DNA of 10,226 nucleotides, from IMG/VR virus record IMGVR_UViG_2681813004_000013, positions 1-10,226 of that record, one strand, 5' to 3'. The notes under the pieces were generated by a model that saw nothing but the letters and a program-made list of their open reading frames with translations, had not been told where the DNA came from and did not search any database. The translations under genes were made by a program, and so were the position numbers. Source of the DNA: a virus (Duplodnaviria; Heunggongvirae; Uroviricota; Caudoviricetes). Below are positions 1 to 10,226 of the stretch, piece by piece (position 1 is the first letter of the stretch; each line of letters begins with the position of its first letter).

Positions 1-233
1 TTAACCTGGTCGCATTTTTCCTTCGACAGCTTCATTCCCGGTATGACGGGCTTACCATCCACCATTGTGGCACCACGACAGATGGTCCATATACCGGAAC
101 CATCGCGGTATGCCGTAGTGTGGTTACCCTCTTTTTCATCCAGAAACTGGTCAAGTATTTGAGGAGCAGATGCGCCTGCTCCAATCAGCGCCAGAACGAC
201 CGCTGACAGGCCGTATTTGATTTTTGCGTTCAT
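1..233 (-). CDS. SAR endolysin (phage 21 R / P1 Lyz-type lysozyme), N-terminal 77 codons; the CDS continues past the left window edge
   Basis: Minus-strand translation from the ATG at 233..231 gives MNAKIKYGLSAVVLALIGAGASAPQILDQFLDEKEGNHTTAYRDGSGIWTICRGATMVDGKPVIPGMKLSKEKCDQV. It stays open to position 1, so it is absent from the ORF track (no stop). The Gly/Ala-rich, weakly hydrophobic N-terminus looks like a signal-anchor-release domain. The E-x8-D-x5-T catalytic spacing (EGNHTTAYRDGSGIWT) matches phage 21-type lysozymes. It lies downstream of a pinholin gene. No obvious SD precedes the ATG. Confidence 0.85.
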   Translation of the reverse strand, partial: MNAKIKYGLSAVVLALIGAGASAPQILDQFLDEKEGNHTTAYRDGSGIWTICRGATMVDGKPVIPGMKLSKEKCDQV

Positions 234-338
234 GGATATTTATCAGGATTTATCGGTTTCTGAACCCTGGATATGTTTATCTGTCCCGGCCTGTTGAATC
301 AGGCGGGGAAAAGGTAAAGACAATCAAGAGGATTATTT

Positions 339-611
339 ATGGACAATAACACCATTTCTCTACAGGAGTTGCTCGACTGCATTTCCAGGCTTCGGGATGA
401 TGTAAATGCCCTCACTGTTGCATTTTCATATCTGGCTTTCTCAATTCCCAAAGAACAAATGAAACCAACACTGGCATCGCTTCTGCTTGAGTCACGCAAC
501 CCCAAATGGTCCCAGGAACAACAAAATTCTTTCAAGTGGCTGGCGGCATTACTGGAAGAAAAATATGCTGGTAAAATTACCATTTCGGTGGAGTCTTCAG
601 AGAACCAGTAA
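339..611 (+). CDS. Hypothetical 90-aa soluble, probably helical protein; the only plus-strand gene, sitting inside the lysis cassette
   Basis: ATG at 339 is preceded by AAGAGGA (326..332) at good spacing. The translation has protein-like composition, whereas the antisense ORF 299..646 looks like a shadow. I recognise no family. The upstream promoter is only weak (TTGAAT at 294..299, no convincing -10). Confidence 0.5.
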   Translation: MDNNTISLQELLDCISRLRDDVNALTVAFSYLAFSIPKEQMKPTLASLLLESRNPKWSQEQQNSFKWLAALLEEKYAGKITISVESSENQ

Positions 612-921
612 TTCTTCCCGGTAGCTTTCCTTTGTAGGTTATCCACACATTATGCGCCTCTAAAATTACGGGGCGCTTTTCCGGCGACTGCTCACTCCCT
701 TCACATAACCCGGCAGCAACATCCAGGAAGACCTGTCTGATGCTCCTTCTGGCTGCTGCCTCATAAAACTCCAGCGCGGCACCTTCAACACGGTCCAGCG
801 AGATGTCCAGGTCAAAAATTTCACCGTCAAAGCGTTTTTTGTCCCGTAACGCTAAAGTTACCGTAACTTTATTCTCAAAATTGCGGATCCCTTTCACAAT
901 CAGTTCATAGTTTTGAGTCAT
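577..921 (-). CDS. DUF1327 / YdfR-like prophage protein
   Basis: MTQNYELIVKGIRNFENKVTVTLALRDKKRFDGEIFDLDISLDRVEGAALEFYEAAARRS closely resembles my recollection of K-12 Qin prophage YdfR. The position (holin, DUF1327, lysozyme) matches Qin essQ-ydfR-rrrQ. A GGGGAGAG SD lies within the last holin codons. Confidence 0.8.
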   Translation of the reverse strand: MTQNYELIVKGIRNFENKVTVTLALRDKKRFDGEIFDLDISLDRVEGAALEFYEAAARRSIRQVFLDVAAGLCEGSEQSPEKRPVILEAHNVWITYKGKLPGRITGSLKTPPKW

Positions 922-925
922 TGAA

Positions 926-1141
926 TTACTCTCCCCGTGCAGCCTTACGCTTGTCTTCTTTAATCTTGAAATAAAGGTTTGTCAGATACGTCAGCAAGCC
1001 AAATACCAGACTACCCAGCACACCTATTGCCGCCCACTGTGAGGGCGTGACTTTATCGAGCAACTGTAAAAACCAGTACCCGGCACTACCTGCTGAGGTG
1101 CCATAGGCGACACCCGTTGTTAACTTATCCATGGATTTCAT
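926..1141 (-). CDS. Class II pinholin, phage 21 S21-like, with dual-start motif
   Basis: I trimmed ORF-track entry 926..1204 to the start at 1141. This gives [71 protein letters not shown] (71 aa). It is near-identical, as I remember it, to S21, including the Met1-Lys-Ser-Met4 antiholin/holin dual start. GAGGTGGGG lies directly upstream. It is paired with a SAR endolysin. Confidence 0.9.
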
Positions 1142-1176
1142 AACCCCACCTCGCAGATGCGGGTGCTGTGTAATGG

Positions 1177-1202
1177 AAATAAAAAGGCCACCTGACGTGG
1201 CC
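1177..1202 (-). terminator. Rho-independent terminator between the methylase remnant and the holin gene
   Basis: The minus strand reads GGCCAC-gtcag-GTGGCC followed by TTTTTATTT (plus-strand ggccac 1186..1191, gtggcc 1197..1202, A-run 1177..1185). Confidence 0.75.
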
Positions 1203-1208
1203 ACCAGA

Positions 1209-2141
1209 TTATTTCCCCACCAGCTCGTTTATCTCTTTCACTGTCTGGTTAAACCGCTCTGACTCAAGCTCAACACCTAAGGCCCGACGCCCCAGCGCCA
1301 TTGCTGCTTTTATTGTGGAACCGGATCCCATAAAAAAATCAGCAACCAGATCACCTGGTCGACTACTGGCATTGATTATTTGCCTGAGCATATCCGCCGG
1401 TTTCTCACACGGATGTTTCCCCGGGTAGAACTGAACGGGTTTATGCATCCAGACATCGGTATAAGGCACGGAGACTGATACGGAGAAATAGCGCCGGAGA
1501 GATTTAAACTCATCCAGCAATTCAGAATATTTGCGATTCAGTGAATCATAAGATGCCACCAGCTGGTGGTGTGGTTGTTCCAGTTGTTGTTCCTGAAACT
1601 TCTCTGCCGCTATACGGGAAAACAGTGCCTGTAACTTCCGATAGTCAGCCTCATTCGGCAACTGCCACTGACTGGCACCAAACCAGTGGGAAACCATATT
1701 TTTCTTACCTGTGGCTTCGGCAATTTGTTTTGCCGTTATACCCAGTTCGGCACGAGCATCCCTGAAATACGATATCAGCGGTGCCATTATGTGCTGTTTG
1801 AGTTCCCTTTCTTTTGCCGCATAGCCGTCACTTTTGCCGCGATATGGCCCCTGGTAATGTTCAGCAAACAGAACGCGCTCTGTGGCAGGAAAATATGCGC
1901 GCTGACTTTCTTTATTACACCCATTCCAACGTCCGGACGGCTTCGCCCAGATGATATGGTTAAGCACGTTGAAACGTTCACGCATCATGATCTCAATATC
2001 AGATGCCAGGCGATGCCCACAGAACAGGTAAAGGCTTCCGGCAGGTTTTAACACCCGCCAGAACTGGGCCAGACAGTGGTCCAGCCACTTAAGGTAATCT
2101 TCGTCCCCTTTCCACTGATTGTCCCAACCGTTAGGTTTCAC
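1209..2141 (-). pseudogene. 5'-truncated beta-class (N6-adenine/N4-cytosine) DNA methyltransferase
   Basis: The C-terminal part carries HPCEKP and FFMGSGST (AdoMet motif I), as expected for beta-class order. The N-terminal DPPY-type motif IV is absent, and the ORF-track start is a GTG at 2141..2139 with no SD. The reading frame upstream runs straight into tRNA sequence. By analogy with CcrM-like enzymes, roughly the first 50 or more residues are missing (inference). Confidence 0.65.
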
Positions 2142-2144
2142 CTT

Positions 2145-2179
2145 CAGTCTGCTCCCTTTGGCCGCTCGGGAACCCCACC
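2145..2179 (-). pseudogene. 5' half of a tRNA-Tyr gene (positions 1 to G34), truncated in the anticodon
   Basis: The minus strand reads GGTGGGGTTCCCGAGCGGCCAAAGGGAGCAGACTG. As I recall the sequence, this equals the acceptor 5' strand, D arm, anticodon-stem 5' strand and C32-U33-G34 of E. coli tRNA-Tyr (tyrT/U/V). Similarity ends abruptly after G34, and no T arm or 3' acceptor strand follows. Confidence 0.8.
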
Positions 2180-2187
2180 GGACTTGA

Positions 2188-2263
<76 letters not shown>

Positions 2264-2265
2264 AC

Positions 2266-2341
2266 TGGACCGCCACCGGGGACTCGAACCTCGCACACTC
2301 AACTTAAAGGGTTGACGCTCTTTCCTGATGGCTAGTGGCGG
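2266..2341 (-). tRNA. Aberrant tRNA-like gene (76 nt, CCA encoded); anticodon loop CCUUUAA, nominal anticodon UUU with C33
   Basis: The acceptor stem is perfect (CCGCCAC / GTGGCGG, then T-CCA). The anticodon stem TCAAC/GTTGA is intact, and a T loop TTCGAGT is present. The D stem has only 2 clean pairs (GCCA vs GAGC), the T stem has an A.C mismatch, position 33 is C instead of the near-universal U, and position 1 is C. It could be a degenerate argN-like tRNA or a functional non-canonical tRNA. Confidence 0.55.
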
Positions 2342-2342
2342 T

Positions 2343-2418
2343 TGGTGGCCCTTGCTGGATTTGAACCAGCGACCTGGCGATTATGAGTCGCTCGCTCTCA
2401 CCACTGAGCTAAAGGGCC
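2343..2418 (-). tRNA. tRNA-Ile2-like (anticodon CAU, ileX/ileZ type), 76 nt with CCA
   Basis: GGCCCTT / TA / GCTC-AGTGGTGA-GAGC / G / AGCGA-CTCATAA-TCGCC / AGGTC / GCTGG-TTCAAAT-CCAGC / AAGGGCC-A-CCA. It is very similar to my recollection of E. coli ileX, including C4 and C5 in the acceptor stem. Lambdoid and Stx phages carry an ileZ at this position. A tRNA-Met cannot be excluded from sequence alone. Confidence 0.85.
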
Positions 2419-2428
2419 GAGCCAAAAA

Positions 2429-2457
2429 ATAATAATCAGATGAAAATCAATAATCAA
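2429..2457 (-). promoter_or_regulatory. Candidate sigma70 promoter for the tRNA cassette
   Basis: The minus strand has TTGATT (2457..2452), a 17-nt spacer, then TATTAT (2434..2429). The predicted start, near 2422, is a few nt upstream of the tRNA-Ile 5' end (2418). The -35 overlaps the last codons of the AraC-type gene. Confidence 0.45.
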
Positions 2458-3160
2458 GCCCTTGCCTGGATACATATCTGTCTGGCGGGAAGCCATAATA
2501 GCGGTGAAATACAGAAATAAAGTAGGACCTGCTTGAATAACCGCATTTTTCTGCTATAGCCTGTCCATATCCATGCCGGGAACATAACATATTTACAGCA
2601 ACACGCATCCGCTCTTCCAGCAACAAGCGACTGAACATGCCCCCTTCATTTTTCAGTTTTGTCTTTAACAAACTCTCACTCATATGCAACTGTAGAGCAA
2701 TCGCACCAAGCGTCCAGCTTGCTGATATATCTGTCTGAATTATCGCCCTGACTTTGGCACTTATGCTGGATAAACATCCACTTAAAAACAATGACATCCG
2801 TTCATCTGTTTCAAACAGAGACAGGCAGGCCATCATAAGAAACATATCCGTGGCCTCTCCGGAAAATCCCTGGCTGGTAATTAAAGCCGCAGCCAACGCA
2901 GGATTGTTGGGTTCCAGCAACAGGTAAAGCGGAATGTCAGTCAGACGAGTCCTCGTCAGCTTATGCTGACTTTCCAGATATTGACTTACGACGGATTCGC
3001 TTATATCGACAATTTTAACTTTGCCATAATGCATAAGGAAAAGCTCCCTGATGCATTTGGTGGCCAGAACAACTGAGCCTGGCTTAAGTGACAACGTATC
3101 CTTTTCAAGAAAAATATTAATTGGGGAGCAAACCATGATAACTGAACAGACAACAGCCAT
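2447..3160 (-). CDS. AraC/XylS-family transcriptional regulator (GadX/GadW/YdeO/AppY-like subgroup; prophage moron of the PatE/Psr type)
   Basis: The C-terminal ~100 aa carry the twin HTH signature (WTLGAIALQLHMSESLLKTKLKNEGGMFSRLLLEERMRVAVNMLC...IAEKCGYSSRSYFISVFHRYYGFPPDRY). The gene is visibly AT-rich compared with its neighbours. The start is uncertain (ATG at 3160 or 3136; both have weak SDs). Confidence 0.85.
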   Translation of the reverse strand: MAVVCSVIMVCSPINIFLEKDTLSLKPGSVVLATKCIRELFLMHYGKVKIVDISESVVSQYLESQHKLTRTRLTDIPLYLLLEPNNPALAAALITSQGFSGEATDMFLMMACLSLFETDERMSLFLSGCLSSISAKVRAIIQTDISASWTLGAIALQLHMSESLLKTKLKNEGGMFSRLLLEERMRVAVNMLCSRHGYGQAIAEKCGYSSRSYFISVFHRYYGFPPDRYVSRQGLDY

Positions 3161-3195
3161 TATAATTTTACTTTCATTAGCAATTGGTTAGCTCA

Positions 3196-3226
3196 ATTAT
3201 AGCCCCAAAAGGTAAATTATCATCAA
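3196..3226 (-). promoter_or_regulatory. Possible promoter of the AraC-type gene
   Basis: The minus strand has a consensus TATAAT (3201..3196) with TTGATG (3226..3221) 19 nt upstream, which is a suboptimal spacer. It lies just downstream of the terminator at 3281..3307. Confidence 0.3.
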
Positions 3227-3280
3227 CACATAAGCAAAGGACTGACAGGTGTCGCCCCCCACCAGCCGCCCATTCACCAC

Positions 3281-3307
3281 AAATAAAAAGCCTTCAGGAC
3301 TGAAGGC
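3281..3307 (-). terminator. Rho-independent terminator overlapping the stop codon of the small wHTH gene
   Basis: The minus strand reads GCCTTCAG-tc-CTGAAGGC followed by TTTTTATTTG. The stop codon TGA (3296..3294) lies inside the hairpin. Confidence 0.7.
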
Positions 3308-3491
3308 GTCTGTAACAACCGCACTGATAGTCTGCCAGACCCGCCATAACAAGTTGGGTCAGTATTAACTGGCAGCGTTCGCGTGAAAGGTAAGTATTCT
3401 GCGCAATCTCCCCGACTGTCGCCGGTTCGGTAACGCTTAATTCATCAAACACAACTCTGGCGGTTTCTGTCATATCCTGCTGTTTCAGCAT
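3294..3491 (-). CDS. Small (65 aa) winged-helix protein, PapI/FaeA-like by pattern
   Basis: MLKQQDMTETARVVFDELSVTEPATVGEIAQNTYLSRERCQLILTQLVMAGLADYQ has the length and layout of PapI/FaeA-type small wHTH regulators (name-tag helix, then xxEIAxxxxLS, then recognition helix, then LxxxGL). GAAAGGG lies upstream of the ATG. The family assignment is from memory only. Confidence 0.55.
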   Translation of the reverse strand: MLKQQDMTETARVVFDELSVTEPATVGEIAQNTYLSRERCQLILTQLVMAGLADYQCGCYRRLQS

Positions 3492-3613
3492 GTCTTTTTA
3501 CCCTTTCCGGTTAACGTGACATACCAATAACTCTTGTCCAAAAAGCCAGCAAGCAGAAAGACCGGTATTCGCAACCACCAGCGTATTTAACGCCCCGTGC
3601 CGTTTTTCAGTCA

Positions 3614-3637
3614 TAAAAAAACCCGCAAAAAGCGGGC
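3614..3637 (-). terminator. Rho-independent terminator after the ORF6N gene
   Basis: The minus strand reads CCCGC-TTTTT-GCGGG followed by TTTTTTTAT (plus-strand cccgc 3622..3626, gcggg 3632..3636, A-run 3615..3621). Confidence 0.7.
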
Positions 3638-3734
3638 TCTTTCAAATGTCCATGTCTGCTATTCGCCTCGCGGTACAGCTTTGCGAAGCGTACCGGAATT
3701 GAAGCAGTTTATGGCTAAAATTGCAAGAACTTTT

Positions 3735-4346
3735 TTAAAGCTGCATCAGCCTTTCCACCAGTTTATCTCTGCGAACAACAAACCAACCATTGGCTCTCGC
3801 CAGTTCCAGCCATGACTCAAGGGAAATAACAATATCATCATCCCGCAACTGAATTGTGGAAACAGTGACACCGCCTCGCTGATAACAGAGAACTCGCGTG
3901 TCGTAACTTTTCTGGCATGAAGCTGGCGCTGACGGATCCTTTTGTCTGAAATAGCACTCTTCCAGTTTTTCGAACACATCCCACGCCTGATCGGTTTCGA
4001 GCATTTTGGCGTGACGGGCTGCTCCGCGTTCTGTCCAGAGAATGAGGGAGCGGGCTTTCGGGGAAATTTGTAACCCTCTTAAAGATGGTTGCAAATTTTG
4101 TGAGTTACTTAAAGTAACCCGCAAATTTTGTGAGTAGTTTAAAGCTACCCGCAATTCTTTAAGGTCATTACCAACAACTTTGAAAAAGTGTTTCCCTTCA
4201 ACGAAGCGTACTTTGTTCTCATGATGATTCTGGCGAATGCGCACCGGCTCAGTGCCGTAAAGCTGCGCCAAAAGTTCGGTGGTAATAACAGGAATCTGGT
4301 TATGGGTGATCGGGGAGAGAGTTTCAACAGAAATTTGAGTTGTCAT
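3735..4346 (-). CDS. ORF6N/KilA-N-family DNA-binding protein (antirepressor-like), first gene after pR'-tR'
   Basis: The N-terminus IPVITTELLAQLYGTEPVRIRQNHHENKVRFVEGKHFFKVVGNDLKEL and the later SLILWTERGAARHAKML follow the ORF6N pattern (VMLDxDLAELYGVETKxLNQxVKRNxxRFPEDFMFQL...AFTEQGVAMLS). AGAGGG lies upstream of the ATG at 4346. Confidence 0.75.
   Translation of the reverse strand: MTTQISVETLSPITHNQIPVITTELLAQLYGTEPVRIRQNHHENKVRFVEGKHFFKVVGNDLKELRVALNYSQNLRVTLSNSQNLQPSLRGLQISPKARSLILWTERGAARHAKMLETDQAWDVFEKLEECYFRQKDPSAPASCQKSYDTRVLCYQRGGVTVSTIQLRDDDIVISLESWLELARANGWFVVRRDKLVERLMQL
4079..4168. repeat. Imperfect tandem repeat, three copies with an exact 30-bp period, in frame inside the ORF6N CDS
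   Basis: The copies start at 4079, 4109 and 4139: ttaaagatggttgcaaattttgtgagttac / ttaaagtaacccgcaaattttgtgagtagt / ttaaagctacccgcaattctttaaggtcat. They encode the decapeptide series LRVALNYSQN / LRVTLSNSQN / LQPSLRGLQI. Confidence 0.85.
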
Positions 4347-4504
4347 AATGACGCCCTCTGGTGGTTTCTTAATAACTCACCACCGACGACGCCAATCATC
4401 TGGTGGTGAACTGTGCGGGGTTGGCGTAACCGGGAAACCGACCGGCGCGGATCTCTCCGCCCCCACACAGCCCACCATAATTCAGATGTGCGCGTGCATA
4501 CGAC

Positions 4505-4529
4505 AATAAAAAACACGCTCGCGGCGTGT
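4505..4529 (-). terminator. tR'-like rho-independent terminator of the late-promoter leader
   Basis: The minus strand reads ACACGC-cgcga-GCGTGT followed by TTTTTTATT (plus-strand acacgc 4513..4518, gcgtgt 4524..4529). Confidence 0.75.
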
Positions 4530-4585
4530 ATCTGTCGCGGTCTCTATCCAGGACGCCAATCCCGACGCCAGATTTTGCTGGCGCG
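4506..4585 (-). ncRNA. Short (~80 nt) constitutive pR' leader transcript (lambda 6S / StxS-like position)
   Basis: It is bounded by the predicted start about 7 nt after the -10 (near 4584) and by the terminator at 4505..4529. It contains a 5' hairpin CGCCAG-caaaat-CTGGCG (4582..4565). Both ends are inferred, not measured. Confidence 0.45.
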
Positions 4586-4590
4586 TGAGG

Positions 4591-4620
4591 AATATAGCCC
4601 CGGATAACAGATTGAGTCAA
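4591..4620 (-). promoter_or_regulatory. pR'-type late promoter
   Basis: The minus strand has TTGACT (4620..4615), an 18-nt spacer, then TATATT (4596..4591). The -35 contains the stop codon of the Q-like gene. A short terminated leader follows, which is the canonical lambdoid Q / pR' / tR' layout. Confidence 0.7.
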
Positions 4621-5183
4621 CAGACGGTTTTTAGATCCCCGGAAGAGAATGCATCACGCATCGGCAGATAGAGCATAAACTCTGCCATTTTCAACCACGC
4701 ATCTATGCGATTACGGCACGTGGCGTAACACCACTCAGGGTGTGAATCATTCAGCAATTCAGCCATTTTGCGCTTAGTCATCCCCCGCCCCACATAACGC
4801 TGACTCAGAACATTGAGCAGCCCGGGATAACCTGCCAGTACTTCACCAATAACCCTGTCGATTATTAACGCCTCTGAATCGGTACAATGTGCCAGCCAGC
4901 TTTTTTGATTGCCGTTGATCATATCCCGCAAAAAAGCCTCAAGTTCAGGTTTGTCCAGACCCGCTTTTTTCATCCTCCGGAGCGCCTCGTTAATTGCCGT
5001 TTTTGTCAGCTTTTTAGAGGTCAGTAATTGGTTGAACATATTTCCCGTCTTACCGTCGCCAATATACGACCAACGCCCCCACATACGCAGTTTCCCCTGG
5101 ATCCAGACACTTTCCAGCGTTTTCAGGCGTAAATGCTCACCGCTTTTGCCTGTAATTTCCGGGTATATCATATTTATGCTCAC
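4617..5183 (-). CDS. Putative late-gene antiterminator (Q-like; resembles DUF1133-type prophage antitermination proteins)
   Basis: The evidence is mainly positional: the gene is directly after rusA and directly before pR'/tR'. The translation (…LRMWGRWSYIG…EALRRMKKAGLDKPELEAFLRDM…) resembles proteins annotated as antitermination proteins in E. coli prophages, by recollection and with low certainty. The start is either the GTG at 5183 (GTGA overlap with the rusA stop) or the ATG at 5171. Confidence 0.65.
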   Translation of the reverse strand: MSINMIYPEITGKSGEHLRLKTLESVWIQGKLRMWGRWSYIGDGKTGNMFNQLLTSKKLTKTAINEALRRMKKAGLDKPELEAFLRDMINGNQKSWLAHCTDSEALIIDRVIGEVLAGYPGLLNVLSQRYVGRGMTKRKMAELLNDSHPEWCYATCRNRIDAWLKMAEFMLYLPMRDAFSSGDLKTVC

Positions 5184-5545
5184 TCACTTTCAATTTTGTA
5201 AATCTTCACGCCCAGCCGCCCAACAGAAACGAGCTGACCGCGCACAATATTGATTTCATCAAACTGCTCGTCGTCTATGAGAAGTCCGGCATGCGTCAGC
5301 GCATCCAGCGGTGCTTTCAGAATGTTGTCCAGGTCACGGCGGCGCTTATCCGGTGGCTCTGCAATAATTTTTATTGCCAGCCTTCCGGACAGGTTTAATT
5401 TCAACCTCTGCTGGCGAACAATAAGCGCCACATCACGGCGATAACGCTTTCCGGCCTCCGAGATGAAATACGTATTGCCATGACGTCGCCAGTAGGTATT
5501 CACCGTCGGCGGGTAAGGCAAAACAAATTCTATCCGTTCAGTCAT
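5180..5545 (-). CDS. rusA: Crossover junction endodeoxyribonuclease RusA (Holliday junction resolvase)
   Basis: MTERIEFVLPYPPTVNTYWRRHGN...PPDKRRRDLDNILKAPLDALTHAGLLIDDEQ matches the RusA signature (…PDRRRRDLDN…K…DAL…DD.Q…). Its ATG immediately follows the upstream stop (TGAATG). Confidence 0.9.
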   Translation of the reverse strand: MTERIEFVLPYPPTVNTYWRRHGNTYFISEAGKRYRRDVALIVRQQRLKLNLSGRLAIKIIAEPPDKRRRDLDNILKAPLDALTHAGLLIDDEQFDEINIVRGQLVSVGRLGVKIYKIESE

Positions 5546-6604
5546 TCATGCTTTCCACTTCAGGACACCCGAATTTCTCGCGTGCATTAAAAAACGAATC
5601 AGCAACAACAGCTGGCTGCCGTGTTTCTCTTCAAATTCTCTTACCCCGGCATGTAGCTCGTTATGGCAGCGTCTACACAACGGAATAACAAACAAATCGT
5701 CAGCCTTTGTTCCCGTTCCCCCCAGTCCATGACCAATGATGTGATGCGGATCATCTGCCTGATTGCCACACGCCATGCACTTCTGCGTTTTTACCCACCG
5801 CGTGTATATCGGCATCTCTTCACGTTGTGGTTTCTGGCGTCTGAGGTATTGAGCAGGAGACTCCGGATCAACAGTTATGCTGACCACCGCTTTTTCCTGT
5901 TGTGGGTTCTGTTGCTGGTGGGCGTAAGGCAACGGCGCAAGATTTTTTGTGCGCTGCTTCAGTATGCTGGTGGCGCTCTGCTCTCCCGGTACGATGTCGC
6001 TTTCACGGTACATTGAGCGGATTTTTTCCGCACGCAACCCCAGCGAACGACGTAATACCGCTTCCGGTAGCGCGTCCGCCACCTGATTGCGGACCGCCCA
6101 CCAGGATAATTCAGCCAGAGATAATTCCCGTTCCTGTGCACCACTTATTGCGTGACGTATGACGTCAATCATCCAGGCTGTCAGATTTTGTTGAGCAAGC
6201 TGCCCGAGTGATTCGGATGTCTGGTCACGCAGCTGGTTGTCGCAGTGCCAGCACAACACCATTGCGCCGGTACCATAACGGTGAATGACGGTTTCACTGT
6301 GGTGATAATCGCCGTGTGGCCACTGGCAGGATTTAACATGACGCAGTAACCAGTCAGACAATGCGCCAGCGCCACCAGCAGCACGAATCACTCGTTCGTC
6401 GCTGAAAAATGGCAGTAATGATTTATCCTCCGCCAGCGGCTGGCGAACGGCAGGAACGACCCCAGACGGCAGATTACGCATGCTTTTCGGTTCCGGCTCC
6501 ACCAGTACCCGGGTATTGTGGAATACCGGCATGGATTCACGGCCCGGCTTAACGATCACCAGCCCGAGTTCCGGTACCAGAACAGGTCGAAGTAATACCC
6601 GCAC
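5546..6604 (-). CDS. DUF968 / YdfU-like protein with a C-terminal HNH-like zinc motif
   Basis: The C-terminus CMACGNQADDPHHIIGHGLGGTGTKADDLFVIPLCRRCHNELH has a CxxC…HH…CxxCH…H arrangement. The size and the position upstream of rusA match Qin YdfU. The GTG start at 6604 is preceded by GGAGG, which overlaps the upstream stop (GGAGGTAACGTG). Confidence 0.8.
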   Translation of the reverse strand: MRVLLRPVLVPELGLVIVKPGRESMPVFHNTRVLVEPEPKSMRNLPSGVVPAVRQPLAEDKSLLPFFSDERVIRAAGGAGALSDWLLRHVKSCQWPHGDYHHSETVIHRYGTGAMVLCWHCDNQLRDQTSESLGQLAQQNLTAWMIDVIRHAISGAQERELSLAELSWWAVRNQVADALPEAVLRRSLGLRAEKIRSMYRESDIVPGEQSATSILKQRTKNLAPLPYAHQQQNPQQEKAVVSITVDPESPAQYLRRQKPQREEMPIYTRWVKTQKCMACGNQADDPHHIIGHGLGGTGTKADDLFVIPLCRRCHNELHAGVREFEEKHGSQLLLLIRFLMHARNSGVLKWKA

Positions 6605-6605
6605 G

Positions 6606-6890
6606 TTACCTCCAGAGCCGTTGCTGGAATGTGCGGGACGGACGCGGTGGGCGTTCGGAGTAAGGAAGCCTGACGGAGATTATCCAGTGACGATAATCGA
6701 GGCTGAGGGCTTCCCTAAACTCATACCCACGCCTGCGGTAGTTCTGAATCAGCCATTCGGCCTGTTCTTCAGTGCATGGGTCATGCTGATACCAGTCATA
6801 TTTGAATGTGTGAGAACGCCGCCCGTGCCTACTGGCAAAGACGGCTGAATTATCAGAATTGTTAATTTTTTTGTAATGCACCACTACCAT
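6606..6890 (-). CDS. Hypothetical protein (~92-94 aa)
   Basis: The ORF is translationally coupled to the downstream DUF968 gene. GAGGA abuts the ATG at 6890, so one of the GTG codons 2-3 codons later is the better-spaced start. I recognise no family. Confidence 0.55.
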   Translation of the reverse strand: MVVVHYKKINNSDNSAVFASRHGRRSHTFKYDWYQHDPCTEEQAEWLIQNYRRRGYEFREALSLDYRHWIISVRLPYSERPPRPSRTFQQRLWR

Positions 6891-6950
6891 CCTCGTAATG
6901 GTGCGACAGACGCCAGTTGTTCAGGCTGGCTTTAACTATAGCATTATAAT

Positions 6951-7118
6951 CTAGTCTTTCTTAATGCTGAAGTGACTGACCGAATCCGCATGCGATTCTT
7001 TGGTGATCAGAATAACATCGGGTGGCAATGGCATTACGATAAATTCACCATTCTCAAGAACTATTACTTCATAATTACCAGATACAGAAAGCGCAGCAAT
7101 TAATTCCTTATCATTCAT
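6951..7118 (-). CDS. Hypothetical 55-aa protein (below the ORF-track size cut-off)
   Basis: My own translation is MNDKELIAALSVSGNYEVIVLENGEFIVMPLPPDVILITKESHADSVSHFSIKKD, ending at TAG (6953..6951). Its own SD is weak, but an 11-codon uORF with a strong SD ends 9 nt upstream. It fills an otherwise empty gap in the operon. Confidence 0.4.
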   Translation of the reverse strand: MNDKELIAALSVSGNYEVIVLENGEFIVMPLPPDVILITKESHADSVSHFSIKKD

Positions 7119-7248
7119 AACAAAACCCTATGAACTTTTAACATTTCCCCTTAAGGGGTCCATCCCTCTTCTCCCTGCGCGCTACTTAAGTATTTTTGAT
7201 TCTATTCCGGCACCTTCAAAAAGCTCAAACGTCTTGAAAATAAACAAC

Positions 7249-7270
7249 AAAAAACCCGCCGAAGCGGGTT
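7249..7270 (-). terminator. Rho-independent terminator of the hok mRNA
   Basis: The minus strand reads AACCCGC-ttcg-GCGGGTT followed by TTTTGTTGTTT. Confidence 0.8.
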
Positions 7271-7338
7271 AAGTGCGGGTGCGTTGAGGATGCCTGACAC
7301 ATCAGAGGTGGCGAGGGATTTCTCCCCCGCCGGGTCTC

Positions 7339-7494
7339 TTACTCCTCAGGTTCGTAAGCTGTGAAGACAGCGACCTCCGTCTGGCCGGTTCGGATTCGTA
7401 CCTCGCAGAGGTCTTTCCTCGTTACCAGTGCCGTCACTATGACGGTTAAACAGATGACGATCAGGGCGATTAACATCGCCTTTTGCTGCTTCAT
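7339..7494 (-). CDS. hok: Hok-family type I toxin (51 aa), HokD/RelF-like
   Basis: My own translation is MKQQKAMLIALIVICLTVIVTALVTRKDLCEVRIRTGQTEVAVFTAYEPEE. This matches my recollection of E. coli HokD (RelF). An AAGGAG SD lies upstream. The ORF is below the ORF-track size cut-off. Confidence 0.95.
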   Translation of the reverse strand: MKQQKAMLIALIVICLTVIVTALVTRKDLCEVRIRTGQTEVAVFTAYEPEE

Positions 7495-7550
7495 AGCCTG
7501 CTTCTCCTTGACCTTTCGGTCCGTAAGAGGCTAATCTCTATGTGTCGCAT
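7491..7550 (-). CDS. mok: mok-like leader ORF (19 codons) ending in an ATGA overlap with the hok start
   Basis: ATG CGA CAC ATA GAG ATT AGC CTC TTA CGG ACC GAA AGG TCA AGG AGA AGC AGG CTA TGA. GAGG lies 8 nt upstream of its ATG. The region aligns with the R1 mok start (…AGCCUCUUAC…CAAGGAGAAG…). It is much shorter than R1 mok. Confidence 0.45.
   Translation of the reverse strand: MRHIEISLLRTERSRRSRL
7508..7537 (+). promoter_or_regulatory. sok antisense promoter
   Basis: The plus strand has TTGACC (7508..7513), an 18-nt spacer, then TAATCT (7532..7537). The context taagaggcTAATCT parallels the R1 sok promoter region as I recall it. Confidence 0.5.
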
Positions 7551-7610
7551 AGATATGGCCTCAGATTAATGTTAAGCGTCTTGCCGGACGCGTAATGTTA
7601 ACTGGGGCTT
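7544..7610 (+). ncRNA. sok: Sok-like antisense RNA (approximate ends)
   Basis: It would start about 7 nt after the -10 and be antisense to the mok SD and start codon (7550..7548 and upstream). The 3' end is not well defined: the hairpin GCGTC-ttgccg-GACGC at 7576..7591 lacks a clean U tract. Confidence 0.45.
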
Positions 7611-7668
7611 TTCTCTGTCTGCCTTACGGCGGCATGCCCGAGGCAGACAGCCTCAAGCACCCGCAGCA

Positions 7669-7696
7669 ATTCTACTTAACTCTCGCTTTACAGCAA
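7669..7696 (-). promoter_or_regulatory. hok mRNA promoter
   Basis: The minus strand has TTGCTG (7696..7691), a 16-nt spacer, then TAGAAT (7674..7669). The predicted 5' end, GGGUGCUUGAGG (7662..7651), is complementary, with one bulge, to CCUCAACGCACCC near the 3' end (plus-strand 7277..7289). This is the fold-back-inhibition pairing typical of hok mRNAs. Confidence 0.5.
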
Positions 7697-7737
7697 ACCG
7701 TTTTTGCCCGATATGGGAATTCCCATACGGAATGAAT

Positions 7738-7842
7738 TCAGTTCCCCAGGCGATCCATCAAAAACACAACCAGGCAGTAAACACCCACAACAGCAATAAC
7801 AGCCAGAGCGCCTTCCATTACCAGTGAAATATCATCCGACAT
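7738..7842 (-). CDS. 34-aa single-pass hydrophobic peptide (unannotated small ORF)
   Basis: My own translation is MSDDISLVMEGALAVIAVVGVYCLVVFLMDRLGN. A strong SD, AAGGGAGGG, lies 3-4 nt before the ATG. A candidate promoter lies upstream (TTGCTA, 18-nt spacer, TATATG, within about 7870..7905). I recognise no family. Confidence 0.5.
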   Translation of the reverse strand: MSDDISLVMEGALAVIAVVGVYCLVVFLMDRLGN

Positions 7843-7951
7843 ATTCCCTCCCTTGGTGTGAATTCCGGCGAACGTTTTTACCCCCACCGACAAATAACAT
7901 ATACTAGAAAAGCAATAGCTATAGCAACGCCTGCAAATGCATCGGGCCGGC

Positions 7952-8785
7952 TCATTGGTGCGCCCCCTGTATCGCTTCTACTGCGATCTGACTGGCGTAT
8001 TTGTTAATGGTAACGATAAGTTCTTGCTCGGCCTCATCCAGACAACCACCGATACCTCGCCTGTCACCTTCAGAAGCATCGAAATCTGCACGAACCCTGG
8101 CGACCTTCAGGATTGCGGACAACACCTCATCAGGGATTGCCGGAGAGTTGGTTGACGTTTCCGAGGTTATCCGAAAATTATTGGTTGACGAATTCTTATT
8201 TTCCCGAAAGTTTTCGGCATGAAGCATGGCGGTGTTATACCCATCCGCGAAAATCTCTGCTTCTTCGTTATTCAGTTCGGCACCAAGTTTAAGCGCAATA
8301 GCTTTTGCCATTGAGGCGGTAATTTGATGGCATGGCTGACGTCCATGAAGCATGGCGTCGCTCCGCTCTATGCCATCCAGCGCAATTCGAAGCGCATGAA
8401 TTGTAGTAATGCTATCGTTTGGGGTTATTCCGTATCGTTCGAATACAGCGATATGGTTGCGCATAATCGCAGGTGTAAGCTCTTTGTAAGCAAGAGCAAG
8501 AGGTCCAGATACATCGTTCAGCACTACCGTCATCGGTGAGGCGGCGTAGACTTCAATAATCCCAGTATCAATAGGCCATTCCCCATCCTTGATATAGTAA
8601 CTTGTTCCGTCAACTTGCTGTTCTACAATGTGGAAAGCACCTATTGGTTCTGCTTCCAGCGATGCCAGTGCAATTTTGAATAACTCGCCCTCTACCCGTG
8701 CCATCCCTGAATTGGGGTAGCATTTCGCAATCGCTATTTTTAATTTGGCTTCTTCGATTAATTTCTCTTTGGTTAATTCAGTCAC
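7952..8785 (-). CDS. Hypothetical 277-aa protein
   Basis: This is a long ORF with protein-like composition. It has an N-terminal helical segment ending ALASLEAEP, reminiscent of Ead/Ea22-like prophage proteins, and an S/T/N-rich linker (NKNSSTNNFRITSETSTNS). It has a GTG start at 8785. No confident family assignment. Confidence 0.7.
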   Translation of the reverse strand: MTELTKEKLIEEAKLKIAIAKCYPNSGMARVEGELFKIALASLEAEPIGAFHIVEQQVDGTSYYIKDGEWPIDTGIIEVYAASPMTVVLNDVSGPLALAYKELTPAIMRNHIAVFERYGITPNDSITTIHALRIALDGIERSDAMLHGRQPCHQITASMAKAIALKLGAELNNEEAEIFADGYNTAMLHAENFRENKNSSTNNFRITSETSTNSPAIPDEVLSAILKVARVRADFDASEGDRRGIGGCLDEAEQELIVTINKYASQIAVEAIQGAHQ

Positions 8786-8794
8786 TTTTCATTA

Positions 8795-8816
8795 CCGCCC
8801 TTTCGGGCGGCCTCCT
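8795..8816 (-). promoter_or_regulatory. AGGAGG followed by a GAAA-tetraloop hairpin upstream of the 277-aa gene (possible hairpin-bridged ribosome binding site)
   Basis: The minus strand reads AGGAGG (8816..8811), CCGCCC-gaaa-GGGCGG (8810..8795), taatgaaaa, then GTG (8785). No U tract follows the hairpin, so it is not a canonical terminator. Confidence 0.4.
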
Positions 8817-8820
8817 GACA

Positions 8821-9033
8821 TTAATCGTTGTGATAACTCATAGCTTCATTTGCAGCATCAACTGGATCAACATCCCACCAGCAATAATTTGGGTCGACAC
8901 CTTCAGGTGTCCACGGCTCTAATTCATTTTTTGCTACATTCTCGTCACCAGTAATTTTAAAAATCTGCTCAGAGAATTTTTTTACCCACTCGTTATATTT
9001 TTCCGCGTTAATGGTTTTCTGTGTATTTAACAT
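8821..9033 (-). CDS. Hypothetical 70-aa acidic, Trp-rich protein
   Basis: GGAGG lies 7 nt upstream of the ATG at 9033. The gene is markedly AT-rich. The C-terminal segment is EPWTPEGVDPNYCWWDVDPVDAANEAMSY. I recognise no family. Confidence 0.65.
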   Translation of the reverse strand: MLNTQKTINAEKYNEWVKKFSEQIFKITGDENVAKNELEPWTPEGVDPNYCWWDVDPVDAANEAMSYHND

Positions 9034-9078
9034 AGATATACCTCCGGTTAAGGATTAAATTTTATTTACAGTGCTGAT

Positions 9079-9438
9079 TTAATATTCAGTTCTGGCTTTT
9101 GTTGCCCTGCGTATCCGCGCTTTCGCGTTACGCTCAATCTGAATTAGCTTTTCTATATTTTTTCGCCTTTCCTGTTCCTCCTGGCGCAATAGCCTTACAT
9201 CATCTGCCAGTCTGGTTTCTCTTTTAGCCACAGAGAGCATCCAGTCAAACGGCTCCACAACTGCACCACAGATTTTGCAGCGGACCTGACGCTCTTTTTC
9301 GTCAACCCGGACAGAAGCGTGATGGCAGTATGGTCTTTCCGATGGCTCATAAAGAAAATTAACCTGATTACGTGGGTCATCCTCTTTTACCGGAAATAAA
9401 ACGATATTGCTTAACTCATCTTCTGGTTTTATTTCCAT
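9079..9438 (-). CDS. Hypothetical 119-aa protein with a Zn-ribbon-like motif and a basic coiled-coil tail
   Basis: I trimmed ORF-track entry 9079..9489 to the ATG at 9438, which is preceded by AAGGAGAGGAG. It contains YCHH…(13 aa)…CKIC, followed by a heptad-like, charged C-terminus (RLLRQEEQERRKNIEKLIQIERNAKARIRR). Confidence 0.7.
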   Translation of the reverse strand: MEIKPEDELSNIVLFPVKEDDPRNQVNFLYEPSERPYCHHASVRVDEKERQVRCKICGAVVEPFDWMLSVAKRETRLADDVRLLRQEEQERRKNIEKLIQIERNAKARIRRATKARTEY

Positions 9439-9495
9439 GCTCCTCTCCTTTGATGCGAATGCCAGCGATAATTGAAGCCTGATAGCCAATTTTAC

Positions 9496-9915
9496 TCACA
9501 GCCCCCCCTGATAATTTCCCTGATAAAACGCCAGCACTCGCTGCATAACTTCGCTCTTCCGGCACTCGCGACAGATTATATTCAGGCGCCTGTCGTAGCG
9601 ACGTATTTCTCCGTCTGGTAATGACCATATAAGGTCAGGATCAACCACAACCGGTTTCTTCAGCTTTGCCCTCGATAATTTTTTGCGGGCGTTTTGCCAG
9701 TCCTTACGAGCCTGTTCAGAGGGGAATAATCCGTAGCCTGAATTGTAAACATCACCACTGGCGACCAGTTCTCTGGCGAGAGTGCTTATGTAATACCTTG
9801 ATGCACCGGTTTTAGCCTCCAGAGCCCGTAACGTCTCGCGACCGCTCAGACGTACAAGTTCAATAACCTGCCCTTTAATTTTTTCTCGCTCTTCTTGTGT
9901 AAAAACTTTTGCCAC
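9496..9915 (-). CDS. 139-aa winged-helix protein (DUF977/FaeA-like prophage protein)
   Basis: The GTG start at 9915 is preceded by AGGAGG 4 nt upstream. The N-terminus QVIELVRLSGRETLRALEAKTGASRYYISTLARELVASGDV has a wHTH layout. The family name is from memory and has moderate certainty. Confidence 0.7.
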   Translation of the reverse strand: MAKVFTQEEREKIKGQVIELVRLSGRETLRALEAKTGASRYYISTLARELVASGDVYNSGYGLFPSEQARKDWQNARKKLSRAKLKKPVVVDPDLIWSLPDGEIRRYDRRLNIICRECRKSEVMQRVLAFYQGNYQGGL

Positions 9916-9955
9916 AAGTCCTCCTGAAAATTACCTCGTGACCTGAAATAAACAC

Positions 9956-10226
9956 TTACCCCCTGAAGCCCGGTGGAATTTCGGTATCCGGTTCAGAAAT
10001 ATGATTCACACAACGCTGGTTGTTCGTGCCGCTTACCGGGAGCAACCAGGGGTTTTCAAAATTTCGGTCCGGTCCAAAAAACGTCGTCGCTCGCTGAACA
10101 AATTCCGTTCCAGTTTTCCCGGTAACCGCCAGATATCTTGCGTAACGCCTCACGCCATCCAGCATGGCCTCTGGTGGCACCCCCTCGCGTAATCTGGCCT
10201 TCCAGGCACTGAAAGCGGATTTCTTC
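9956..10226 (-). CDS. C-terminal part of a phage replication-initiation-type protein (Phg_2220_C / DnaD-O-like C-terminus); the CDS continues past the right window edge
   Basis: The frame stays open upstream of the ORF-track GTG to the window edge (…KKSAFSAWKARLREGVPPEAMLDGVRRYARYLAVTGKTGTEFVQRATTFFGPDRNFENPW…). The pattern F..WKA…(role/date helix)…F…P..W..RW resembles the conserved phage replication-protein C-terminus. The position upstream of the nin-like genes fits. Confidence 0.6.
   Translation of the reverse strand, partial: KKSAFSAWKARLREGVPPEAMLDGVRRYARYLAVTGKTGTEFVQRATTFFGPDRNFENPWLLPVSGTNNQRCVNHISEPDTEIPPGFRG

Follow-up and report, generated by a model that had tools for sequence, protein, structure and literature searches.

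The tRNA-like gene at positions 2266–2341 (minus strand) of the virus record IMGVR_UViG_2681813004_000013 is probably a decaying, non-decoding relic of a tRNA-Arg gene that hitch-hikes between conserved tRNA genes and not a specially adapted tRNA; after comparing its alleles across E. coli prophages, we give this reading a probability of roughly 0.6. The window analyzed here comprises the whole stretch of 10,226 nucleotides (positions 1 to 10,226 of that record), which represents the late region of a lambdoid prophage with all genes on the minus strand. We refer to the gene and its relatives as C33/UUU genes, after the cytosine at position 33 of the anticodon loop and the nominal anticodon. 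A sequence-only reading of the window had left two explanations side by side, namely a decaying pseudo-tRNA or a functional tRNA whose altered anticodon loop or D arm escapes or decoys anticodon nucleases. The former turned out to be the better supported of the two, since the population of this gene shows broken stem pairs, losses of U8 and G18, deletions, no compensatory changes and a near-neutral diversity.

Read on the minus strand, the 76-nt gene has the sequence CCGCCACUAGCCAUCAGGAAAGAGCGUCAACCCUUUAAGUUGAGUGUGCGAGGUUCGAGUCCCCGGUGGCGGUCCA, and ARAGORN predicts it as a tRNA-Lys(ttt) located between two canonical tRNAs, 1 nt from an ileZ-type gene and 2 nt from a tRNA-Thr gene, as had been noticed before. 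Direct reading together with ARAGORN further demonstrated that the hand fold underlying the sequence-only reading was correct. The acceptor stem comprises 7 bp, all of them Watson-Crick and beginning with C1-G72, the anticodon stem comprises 5 bp (UCAAC/GUUGA), again all Watson-Crick, the T loop UUCGAGU is of the UUCRANY type and the CCA end is encoded. The anticodon loop CCUUUAA (2304–2310, minus strand) carries C33 (2309) in place of U33, the anticodon UUU occupies 2306–2308, and the D stem is left with the two pairs G10-C25 and C11-G24. Direct reading also uncovered two irregularities that had been overlooked, a mismatch A51·C63 (positions 2291 and 2279) in the T arm (2279–2291, minus strand) around the T loop, and a uridine as the discriminator base (U73). 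The mismatch is common to the window copy and the argN(UCG) gene of Shiga toxin 2 (Stx2) phages, and other alleles possess an A-U or G-C pair at this site. Acceptor stem, anticodon stem and T arm, the latter with its one A·C mismatch, still conform to a cloverleaf; a regular D arm, i.e. a stem of 3–4 bp with U8, A14 and G18-G19 in register, is missing in the window copy and present in the family consensus. A minimum free energy fold of the single-stranded window gene lacks the cloverleaf (z = −1.9), which is usual for lone tRNA sequences and was given no weight. Among the 242 distinct tRNAs that ARAGORN predicted in all DNA collected here, 219 carry U33 and 23 carry C33, and 22 of the latter belong to the C33/UUU family. 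As C33 thus clusters in a single family that is conserved in 798 genomes, the window element is more than a chance resemblance to a tRNA.

Scoring with tRNA models gave a divided answer: ARAGORN calls a Lys(UUU), whereas the Rfam tRNA model RF00005 (gathering score 29 bits) yields no match for the window copy, even in a sensitive E-value-mode scan of 331 nt, in which a tRNA-Sec hit of 17.8 bits was its sole Rfam match. The eroded D arm with only two Watson-Crick pairs, as described earlier, is real and comes down to the loss of one base of the family consensus, U12. The deletion lies at 2330–2331 (minus strand), where GCUCA has become GC-CA and A23 is left unpaired (alignments A1 and A2). The nearest relative, our locus L001 from E. 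coli Z1323CEC0019, carries a 77-nt gene labelled tRNA-Lys by PGAP that differs from the window copy only by one additional T, which restores the D stem GCUC/GAGC; the 77-nt consensus likewise has a perfect D stem and passes RF00005 with 44.4 bits. A sequencing or assembly error in an ordinary 77-nt gene, as the difference of only one base from the consensus might suggest, is extremely improbable as the origin of the D-arm defect. This explanation was rejected because 221 of the 5,426 complete E. coli genomes contain an exact match to a 54-nt stretch with the deletion and because the deletion occurs in two cassette contexts, with either argO or Thr as the next gene. It was moreover found in 17 C33/UUU copies from viral, metagenome and genome DNA (16 besides the window copy, from independent assemblies), and its site lies outside any homopolymer run. 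Among the matches listed, the 54-nt stretch bears no tRNA annotation except for the adjoining tRNA-Ile. The exact window allele, which combines the U12 deletion with C70, is rare, as it was seen elsewhere only in locus L077, and no full-length exact match to it was obtained in the complete E. coli genomes.

The position of the gene, 1 nt after an ileZ-type gene, corresponds to the argN slot of ileZ-argN-X cassettes, and the stretch spanning ileZ and the middle gene shares 91.8% identity with its ileZ-argN counterpart in Stx2 phages, so that the earlier assignment to the argN position stands. This slot is normally occupied by a canonical tRNA-Arg with the anticodon UCU, or UCG in Stx2 phages, while the window copy carries U35 in its anticodon UUU in place of the C35 of an arginine anticodon. 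A flank-anchored scan identified canonical UCU alleles with an identical anticodon stem in the same slot, i.e. L182 (loop CUUCUAA) and L186 (loop UUUCUAA), and scanning for the anticodon stem-loop revealed many further Arg(UCU) alleles; in RefSeq genomes, these alleles are annotated as tRNA-Arg. The proposal that the loop derives from CUUCUAA of a tRNA-Arg(UCU) by two changes was right, as these alleles demonstrate, with the one correction that the argN gene carried by Stx2 phages reads UCG in its anticodon (loop CUUCGAA). Compared to L186, the C33 consensus differs only at the compensated pair 4-69 and at positions 26, 32, 33, 35 and 63. The C33/UUU form is hence a descendant of a tRNA-Arg(UCU) through the changes U33C and C35U.

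The known occupants of the slot differ in how closely they resemble this form. The argN gene of Stx2 phages (Stx2a_F349, 933W type) is identical to the C33/UUU consensus at 65 of 77 positions (alignment A1) and shares with it C1-G72, the T arm including A51·C63, U73 and the CCA end, and the RF00005 scores of both are similar (43.0 and 44.4 bits, respectively). It differs by its U33, the anticodon UCG and a G30-C40 pair, whereas the C33/UUU gene carries the loop CCUUUAA on an A30-U40 pair and the window copy additionally lacks U12. The Arg(UCU) alleles (L182, L186, L288, L233 and L299) have the same anticodon stem UCAAC/GUUGA, D arm and T loop as the C33/UUU gene and reside in the same cassette of ileZ, the variable gene, Thr and Gly, but possess U33, C35, an A51-U63 or G51-C63 pair and mostly A or G at position 73. 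The argN(UCG) gene of Stx2 phages (L003, 1582–1658) is itself a low scorer, as its 43 bits lie about 27–30 bits below those of the accompanying ileZ and argO genes.

We then compared the nucleotide diversity (pi) of the middle gene with that of its neighbours. Across 102 neighbour-anchored loci, the middle gene has a pi of 0.032, compared to 0.005 in ileZ and 0.011 in Thr; their segregating sites number 31, 9 and 17, respectively. The DNA outside the cassette is mosaic (pi 0.25–0.45) and unfit as a neutral yardstick, and 12 loci sharing an upstream gene for an AraC-like protein were used instead. In this set, which is small and, like the other samples, includes related genomes, pi reaches 0.055 in both the middle gene and the spacer and 0.072 at third codon positions, compared to 0.011 for ileZ and 0.008 for Thr. 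The diversity of the C33/UUU gene is thus close to that of spacer and third-codon sites and 5–7 times that of the neighbouring tRNAs, meaning that the evolution of the middle gene is roughly neutral in rate, in contrast to its conserved neighbours.

Constraint on the secondary structure was assessed by a cloverleaf pairing test of 14 distinct Arg-type alleles and 25 distinct C33/UUU alleles. The Arg-type alleles are paired in 99.7% of the cells and show two-sided changes at four pairs (3-70, 4-69, 30-40 and 51-63 in standard numbering; 9 cells), a score that none of 500 shuffles reached. The C33/UUU alleles are paired in 93.5% of the cells, the same as their shuffles, 406 of 500 of which reached the observed score, and no two-sided, i.e. 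compensatory, change was detected among the 25 alleles. Since nearly all C33/UUU variants are rare, the shuffle control is uninformative within this clade, and we put weight on the contrast to the Arg-type alleles and on tallies of stem events. In these tallies, 12 disruptive events face 10 pair-keeping ones in the C33 clade, compared to 1 and 13 in the Arg-type alleles (Fisher p = 0.005). The anticodon stem was fixed by the scan pattern for the collected alleles, and with this stem left out the difference persists (p = 0.02). The disruptive events in the C33 clade are G72A, G66A, G66C, C25A, G24A, G24U, G42A, C31G, G50U, G52A, the U12 deletion and a 7-nt deletion. Universal bases are changed as well, with U8C present in 26 and G18A in 4 of the 102 loci. 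The clean covariation in the Arg-type relatives and its lack in the C33 clade make decay the better supported explanation. The comparison across many prophages that had been called for to distinguish compensatory stem changes from random decay thus came out on the side of decay.

The RF00005 scores are in line with this picture. Arg(UCU) alleles reach 55.6–57.8 bits and C33/UUU variant alleles 40.5, 33.1 and 31.2 bits; the common U8C haplotype, the two U12-deletion alleles and also the window copy went unreported. The argument that selective retention of acceptor, anticodon-stem and T-loop elements speaks against decay did not hold up, as acceptor, anticodon and T stems are hit by disruptive changes across the population. 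With a mean identity of 97%, the clade is young, and the retained positions are therefore mostly just unmutated so far.

Several observations weigh against decay. The loop CCUUUAA is nearly invariant within the C33 clade, and three of the five unpaired differences from L186 fall into the 7-nt anticodon loop (binomial p = 0.007), a clustering that looks more like a directed change of the anticodon than random decay. The disruptive variants are mostly rare and the commoner ones are G-U wobbles, which leaves room for weak purifying selection, and the flanking tRNAs of these prophages carry occasional damaging variants, too. The C33/UUU form is also the commonest form of the gene in E. coli, being found in 798 genomes as compared to 462 with an argN(UCG)-type gene and 16 with the main Arg(UCU) allele. 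Finally, the samples are rich in related genomes, and given the youth of the clade the covariation test is low-powered within it.

The history of the gene may be pictured as follows. In one lineage of the argN slot, U33C and C35U have changed the loop from CUUCUAA to CCUUUAA. In the anticodon, the arginyl-tRNA synthetase relies mainly on C35, and U33 forms the U-turn of the anticodon loop; the loss of C35 would thus abolish the arginine identity, and C33 should weaken decoding. Decoding of AGA was probably lost by these changes, and the resulting RNA probably decodes poorly, if it does so at all. Since AAA is a common codon for which the host has several tRNA-Lys(UUU) genes, the switch from a reader of the rare codon AGA to UUU would give up the benefit of codon supply. 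The anticodon UUU would favor the lysyl-tRNA synthetase, but the gene carries the discriminator U73 rather than A73 of tRNA-Lys. Later evolution has been near-neutral, with U8C, G18A, stem mismatches, the 7-nt deletion and the loss of U12 arising in different prophages, and in the window allele the U12 deletion pushes the score below detection by the tRNA model. The RNA is probably still co-transcribed with its neighbours and, because acceptor stem, T arm and CCA are intact, probably still excised by RNase P and 3′ trimming. The tight spacing and the continued excision may in turn mildly discourage a clean loss of the gene.

With tRNA pseudogenes and relics, the C33/UUU gene shares the remnant of a cloverleaf, damaged universal positions, sub-threshold scores in many alleles and a near-neutral diversity. 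Unlike these, it lies 1–2 nt from active-looking tRNAs within a transcription unit and has kept acceptor stem, T loop and CCA, for which reason transcription and processing are still probable. A further parallel is a laboratory switch from tRNA-Arg(UCU) to tRNA-Thr(UGU), which Saks and colleagues reportedly achieved in 1998 by one anticodon mutation. In both cases one substitution, at position 35, suffices to give a UCU tRNA a new nominal anticodon; unlike the laboratory tRNA, the C33/UUU gene has lost U33 in addition and then shows signs of decay, with no sign in its sequence that the new identity is used.

A rival reading, in whose favour the concentration of changes from L186 in the anticodon loop counts (p = 0.007), takes the 77-nt consensus allele, and perhaps also that of the window, as a functional tRNA-Lys(UUU) on a tRNA-Arg body. 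Such a tRNA would replace or shield the host tRNA-Lys against the nucleases PARIS AriB, PrrC or RloC when these are triggered by prophage induction or infection, and owing to C33 and its foreign anticodon stem the nucleases would cut it poorly. We regard this as unlikely, and the more specific version, in which a tRNA-Arg scaffold was re-tooled to UUU so that AriB, PrrC and RloC could not cut it and now decodes AAA as a back-up or, without decoding, serves as a nuclease decoy, as somewhat less likely still. In the re-tooled version, the damaged alleles would represent losses in prophages that no longer meet nuclease pressure. Either idea has greater plausibility for the 77-nt consensus allele, compared to the deletion allele of the window. 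The high prevalence of the gene and the dominance of its consensus, with 279 exact copies among 798 carrier genomes, fit with such a role, and the gene is also present in isolated temperate phages (PhiR47_1 and the PPompW phages). In a few cassettes, a thrU-like gene has undergone a second, independent shift to UUU; this allele is rare, however, being confined to 6 genomes.

AriB requires U36-A-A-U39-C40|A41 together with U16, and cleavage is abolished by U39A and impaired by U16C (PMC12409363). Where AriB needs U39-C40-A41 and U16, the C33/UUU gene presents G39-U40-U41 and C16, as expected from a tRNA that evades this nuclease; yet G39 and C16 were inherited from the tRNA-Arg ancestor and are not new adaptations. 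[quoted passage not shown] The T5 tRNA-Lys and the C33/UUU gene are alike in that both are phage-borne, have the anticodon UUU and differ from the host tRNA-Lys at bases needed by AriB, namely in the 3′ strand of the anticodon stem and at position 16 of the D loop. Unlike the T5 tRNA, the C33/UUU gene, known here from sequence alone, has lost U33, sits on a tRNA-Arg body and displays a near-neutral population pattern; C33 is not reported for the T5 tRNA-Lys (PMC11464382, PMC12409363). HepS of Gifsy-1, another tRNA-targeting system, acts on Thr, Ile and Ser tRNAs and not on Lys.

The condition of the gene further argues against nuclease escape. Its U-turn base is gone (C33), the discriminator is U73 and not A73, and the T stem contains an A·C mismatch, so that the window copy shares with a tRNA-Lys the anticodon UUU but neither the discriminator nor descent, its body being that of a tRNA-Arg. 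The consensus obtains only 44 bits with Rfam and the window copy falls below reporting. U8, G18, U12 and stem pairs are frequently lost, and with no compensation, 12 disruptive stem events and a pi equal to that of spacer and third-codon sites the C33/UUU clade does not behave as a maintained tRNA. The cassette as a whole is not a set of escape variants either: its Thr(UGU) gene equals host thrU, including the motif UAAUCA. A reading of the cassette as escape tRNAs against PARIS or P2-Old was rejected for this Thr gene, which is identical to host thrU and keeps the motifs that AriB and P2-Old reportedly recognise. The support for nuclease escape or decoying thus remains circumstantial.

The arrangement of the gene between its neighbours also allows for a non-decoding element that is kept as a processing unit. 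Its acceptor/T-arm minihelix and CCA would offer cut sites for RNase P and 3′ exonucleases, by which the 3′ end of ileZ and the 5′ end of Thr are set free, and the D arm and anticodon loop would be at liberty to drift. RNase P recognises the helix formed by acceptor stem and T arm, and it alone separates several polycistronic tRNA precursors of E. coli. In agreement with such a role, the spacers are only 1 nt and 2 nt long, no variation of the T loop and CCA occurs in 119 flank-anchored loci, and the gene is full length in the flank-anchored sample save for the 1-nt and 7-nt deletions. This last point holds for 70–90 nt between the neighbours, the range that the scan detects, and cassettes in which ileZ abuts Thr fall outside of it. 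Variant events number 8 in the 35 nt of acceptor stem and T arm and 19 in the remaining 42 nt, but this regional difference is not significant (p = 0.12), and disruptive acceptor and T-stem changes exist (G72A, G66A/C, G52A and G50U). We hence consider a role as processing unit doubtful and prefer the relic.

The loop-CCUUUAA family is present at 853 places, which are distributed over 798 of the 5,426 complete E. coli genomes. A scan of species-representative genomes with a T-arm pattern detected it only in E. coli and Shigella flexneri, and a metagenome scan for the exact stem-loop returned only the C33/UUU family and chance matches outside tRNAs. Neither scan turned up more distant relatives with this loop, and the covariation data for the C33 clade are confined to the family itself. 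In PGAP/RefSeq annotation, the consensus allele is labelled tRNA-Lys and variant alleles are left unannotated, which is in keeping with decay. Literature searches returned no paper naming ileZ, argN and argO together; searches for these gene names with Shiga toxin and tRNA yielded nothing on the C33 gene or its loop among the 15 best matches, and those for prophage tRNA-Lys, anticodon nuclease, PrrC and lambdoid nothing on the C33/UUU gene among the papers listed. The sequence is already in databases, with the consensus automatically labelled tRNA-Lys, and no discussion of the gene was found in the literature searched.

In lambdoid E. coli prophages, a tRNA cassette is located between the region of the Q-type antiterminator and the lysis genes, and the window follows this layout. 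It carries a hok/sok RNA, genes for DUF968, RusA and a Q-like antiterminator (DUF1133), C4/isrK RNAs, genes for an ORF6N protein and an AraC-type helix-turn-helix protein, the tRNAs, and genes for a DNA methylase, a P21-type holin and DUF1327. The cassette starts with a tRNA(CAU) of the ileZ type (2343–2418, minus strand; 72.5 bits with the Rfam tRNA model), which ARAGORN assigns to Met/Ile2 and which is tRNA-Ile/ileZ in L001 and L003. A spacer of 1 nt leads to the C33/UUU gene and one of 2 nt to the tRNA-Thr(UGU) (2188–2263, minus strand; ARAGORN, Rfam 73.8 bits), which is 100% identical to thrU of E. coli K-12 (NC_000913.3). Comparison with the K-12 thrU-tyrU genes revealed that it is followed by a 35-nt 5′ fragment of tyrU, a host-type tRNA-Tyr gene (2145–2179, minus strand), and the 8-nt spacer in between (2180–2187) is that of the host thrU-tyrU operon. 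The thrU half of the prophage cassette thus looks as if it had been captured from the host thrU-tyrU-glyT-thrT operon. The tyrU fragment ends inside the anticodon loop, and since locus L077 has the same break point with different DNA beyond, the break is a mosaic junction. Most related cassettes have a glyT-type tRNA-Gly(UCC) after thrU in place of the tyrU fragment. Just upstream of the cassette, a sigma-70-like promoter match (TTGATT-17-TATTAT, 2429–2457, minus strand) agrees with the consensus at 9 of 12 positions; it is weak evidence, as a scan of the region returned 4 promoter-like sites with 3.1 expected by chance.

Further tRNA-like genes were observed in related cassettes. The thrU-bodied UUU gene mentioned above occupies the third position with the loop CUUUUAA (G35 to U, A26 to G) in L182 (5307–5379) and L184 (413–485) and also in L176, L177, L179 and L180. 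It is fully canonical (Rfam 74.2 bits), annotated as tRNA-Lys in 6 complete E. coli genomes and represents a second shift to UUU in the same cassette family that is independent of the one in the argN slot. A stand-alone 82-nt relative of the middle gene lies about 650 nt beyond the cassette in L188 (3303–3384) and is also found in L012, L178 and L185. Acceptor stem, T arm and CCA are as in the middle gene, and the anticodon arm is longer and different (GCAUAACACGUAUUGUUGUUUUGUG). This relative is flanked on each side by a terminator-like hairpin and is called 'Val(aac)' by ARAGORN; with Rfam, it gives only a faint tmRNA match.

Other features of the window were noted as well. An open reading frame for an N6/N4 DNA methylase (1209–2141, minus strand; Pfam PF01555, E = 1e-36) starts right after the tyrU fragment and is placed between the tRNA cassette and the holin gene. 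At this position, related prophages carry stx (Stx2 phages), a TerB-family gene (L002) or, within the lysis genes, an insertion sequence element (L001). Just downstream of the Q-like gene lie a C4 antisense RNA (67.8 bits) with its a1/b1 target and an isrK RNA (75.5 bits), followed by the gene for the ORF6N-domain protein; together, they occupy 4399–4597 and 3735–4346 (minus strand). This layout resembles the anti-repressor modules P1/P7 immI and Gifsy-1 isrK, found here within a lambdoid late region. A full-length match to the sok antitoxin RNA (105.9 bits; 7492–7662, minus strand) points to a toxin-antitoxin locus of the hok/sok type.

If the relic reading holds, the results bear on annotation first, as hundreds of E. 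coli records call the 77-nt allele "tRNA-Lys" from its anticodon alone and leave sister alleles unannotated. If the gene did act against nucleases, it would to our knowledge be the first known case of a temperate-phage tRNA-Arg scaffold re-assigned to UUU with C33 against nucleases of tRNA-Lys, and the idea of anti-defence tRNAs would extend from virulent T5-like phages to the pool of lambdoid and Stx prophages. If, as we find more probable, it is a relic, the C33/UUU gene would be a natural example of a phage tRNA gene caught in mid-decay, in which two changes of the anticodon loop took away the arginine identity and were followed by relaxed constraint.

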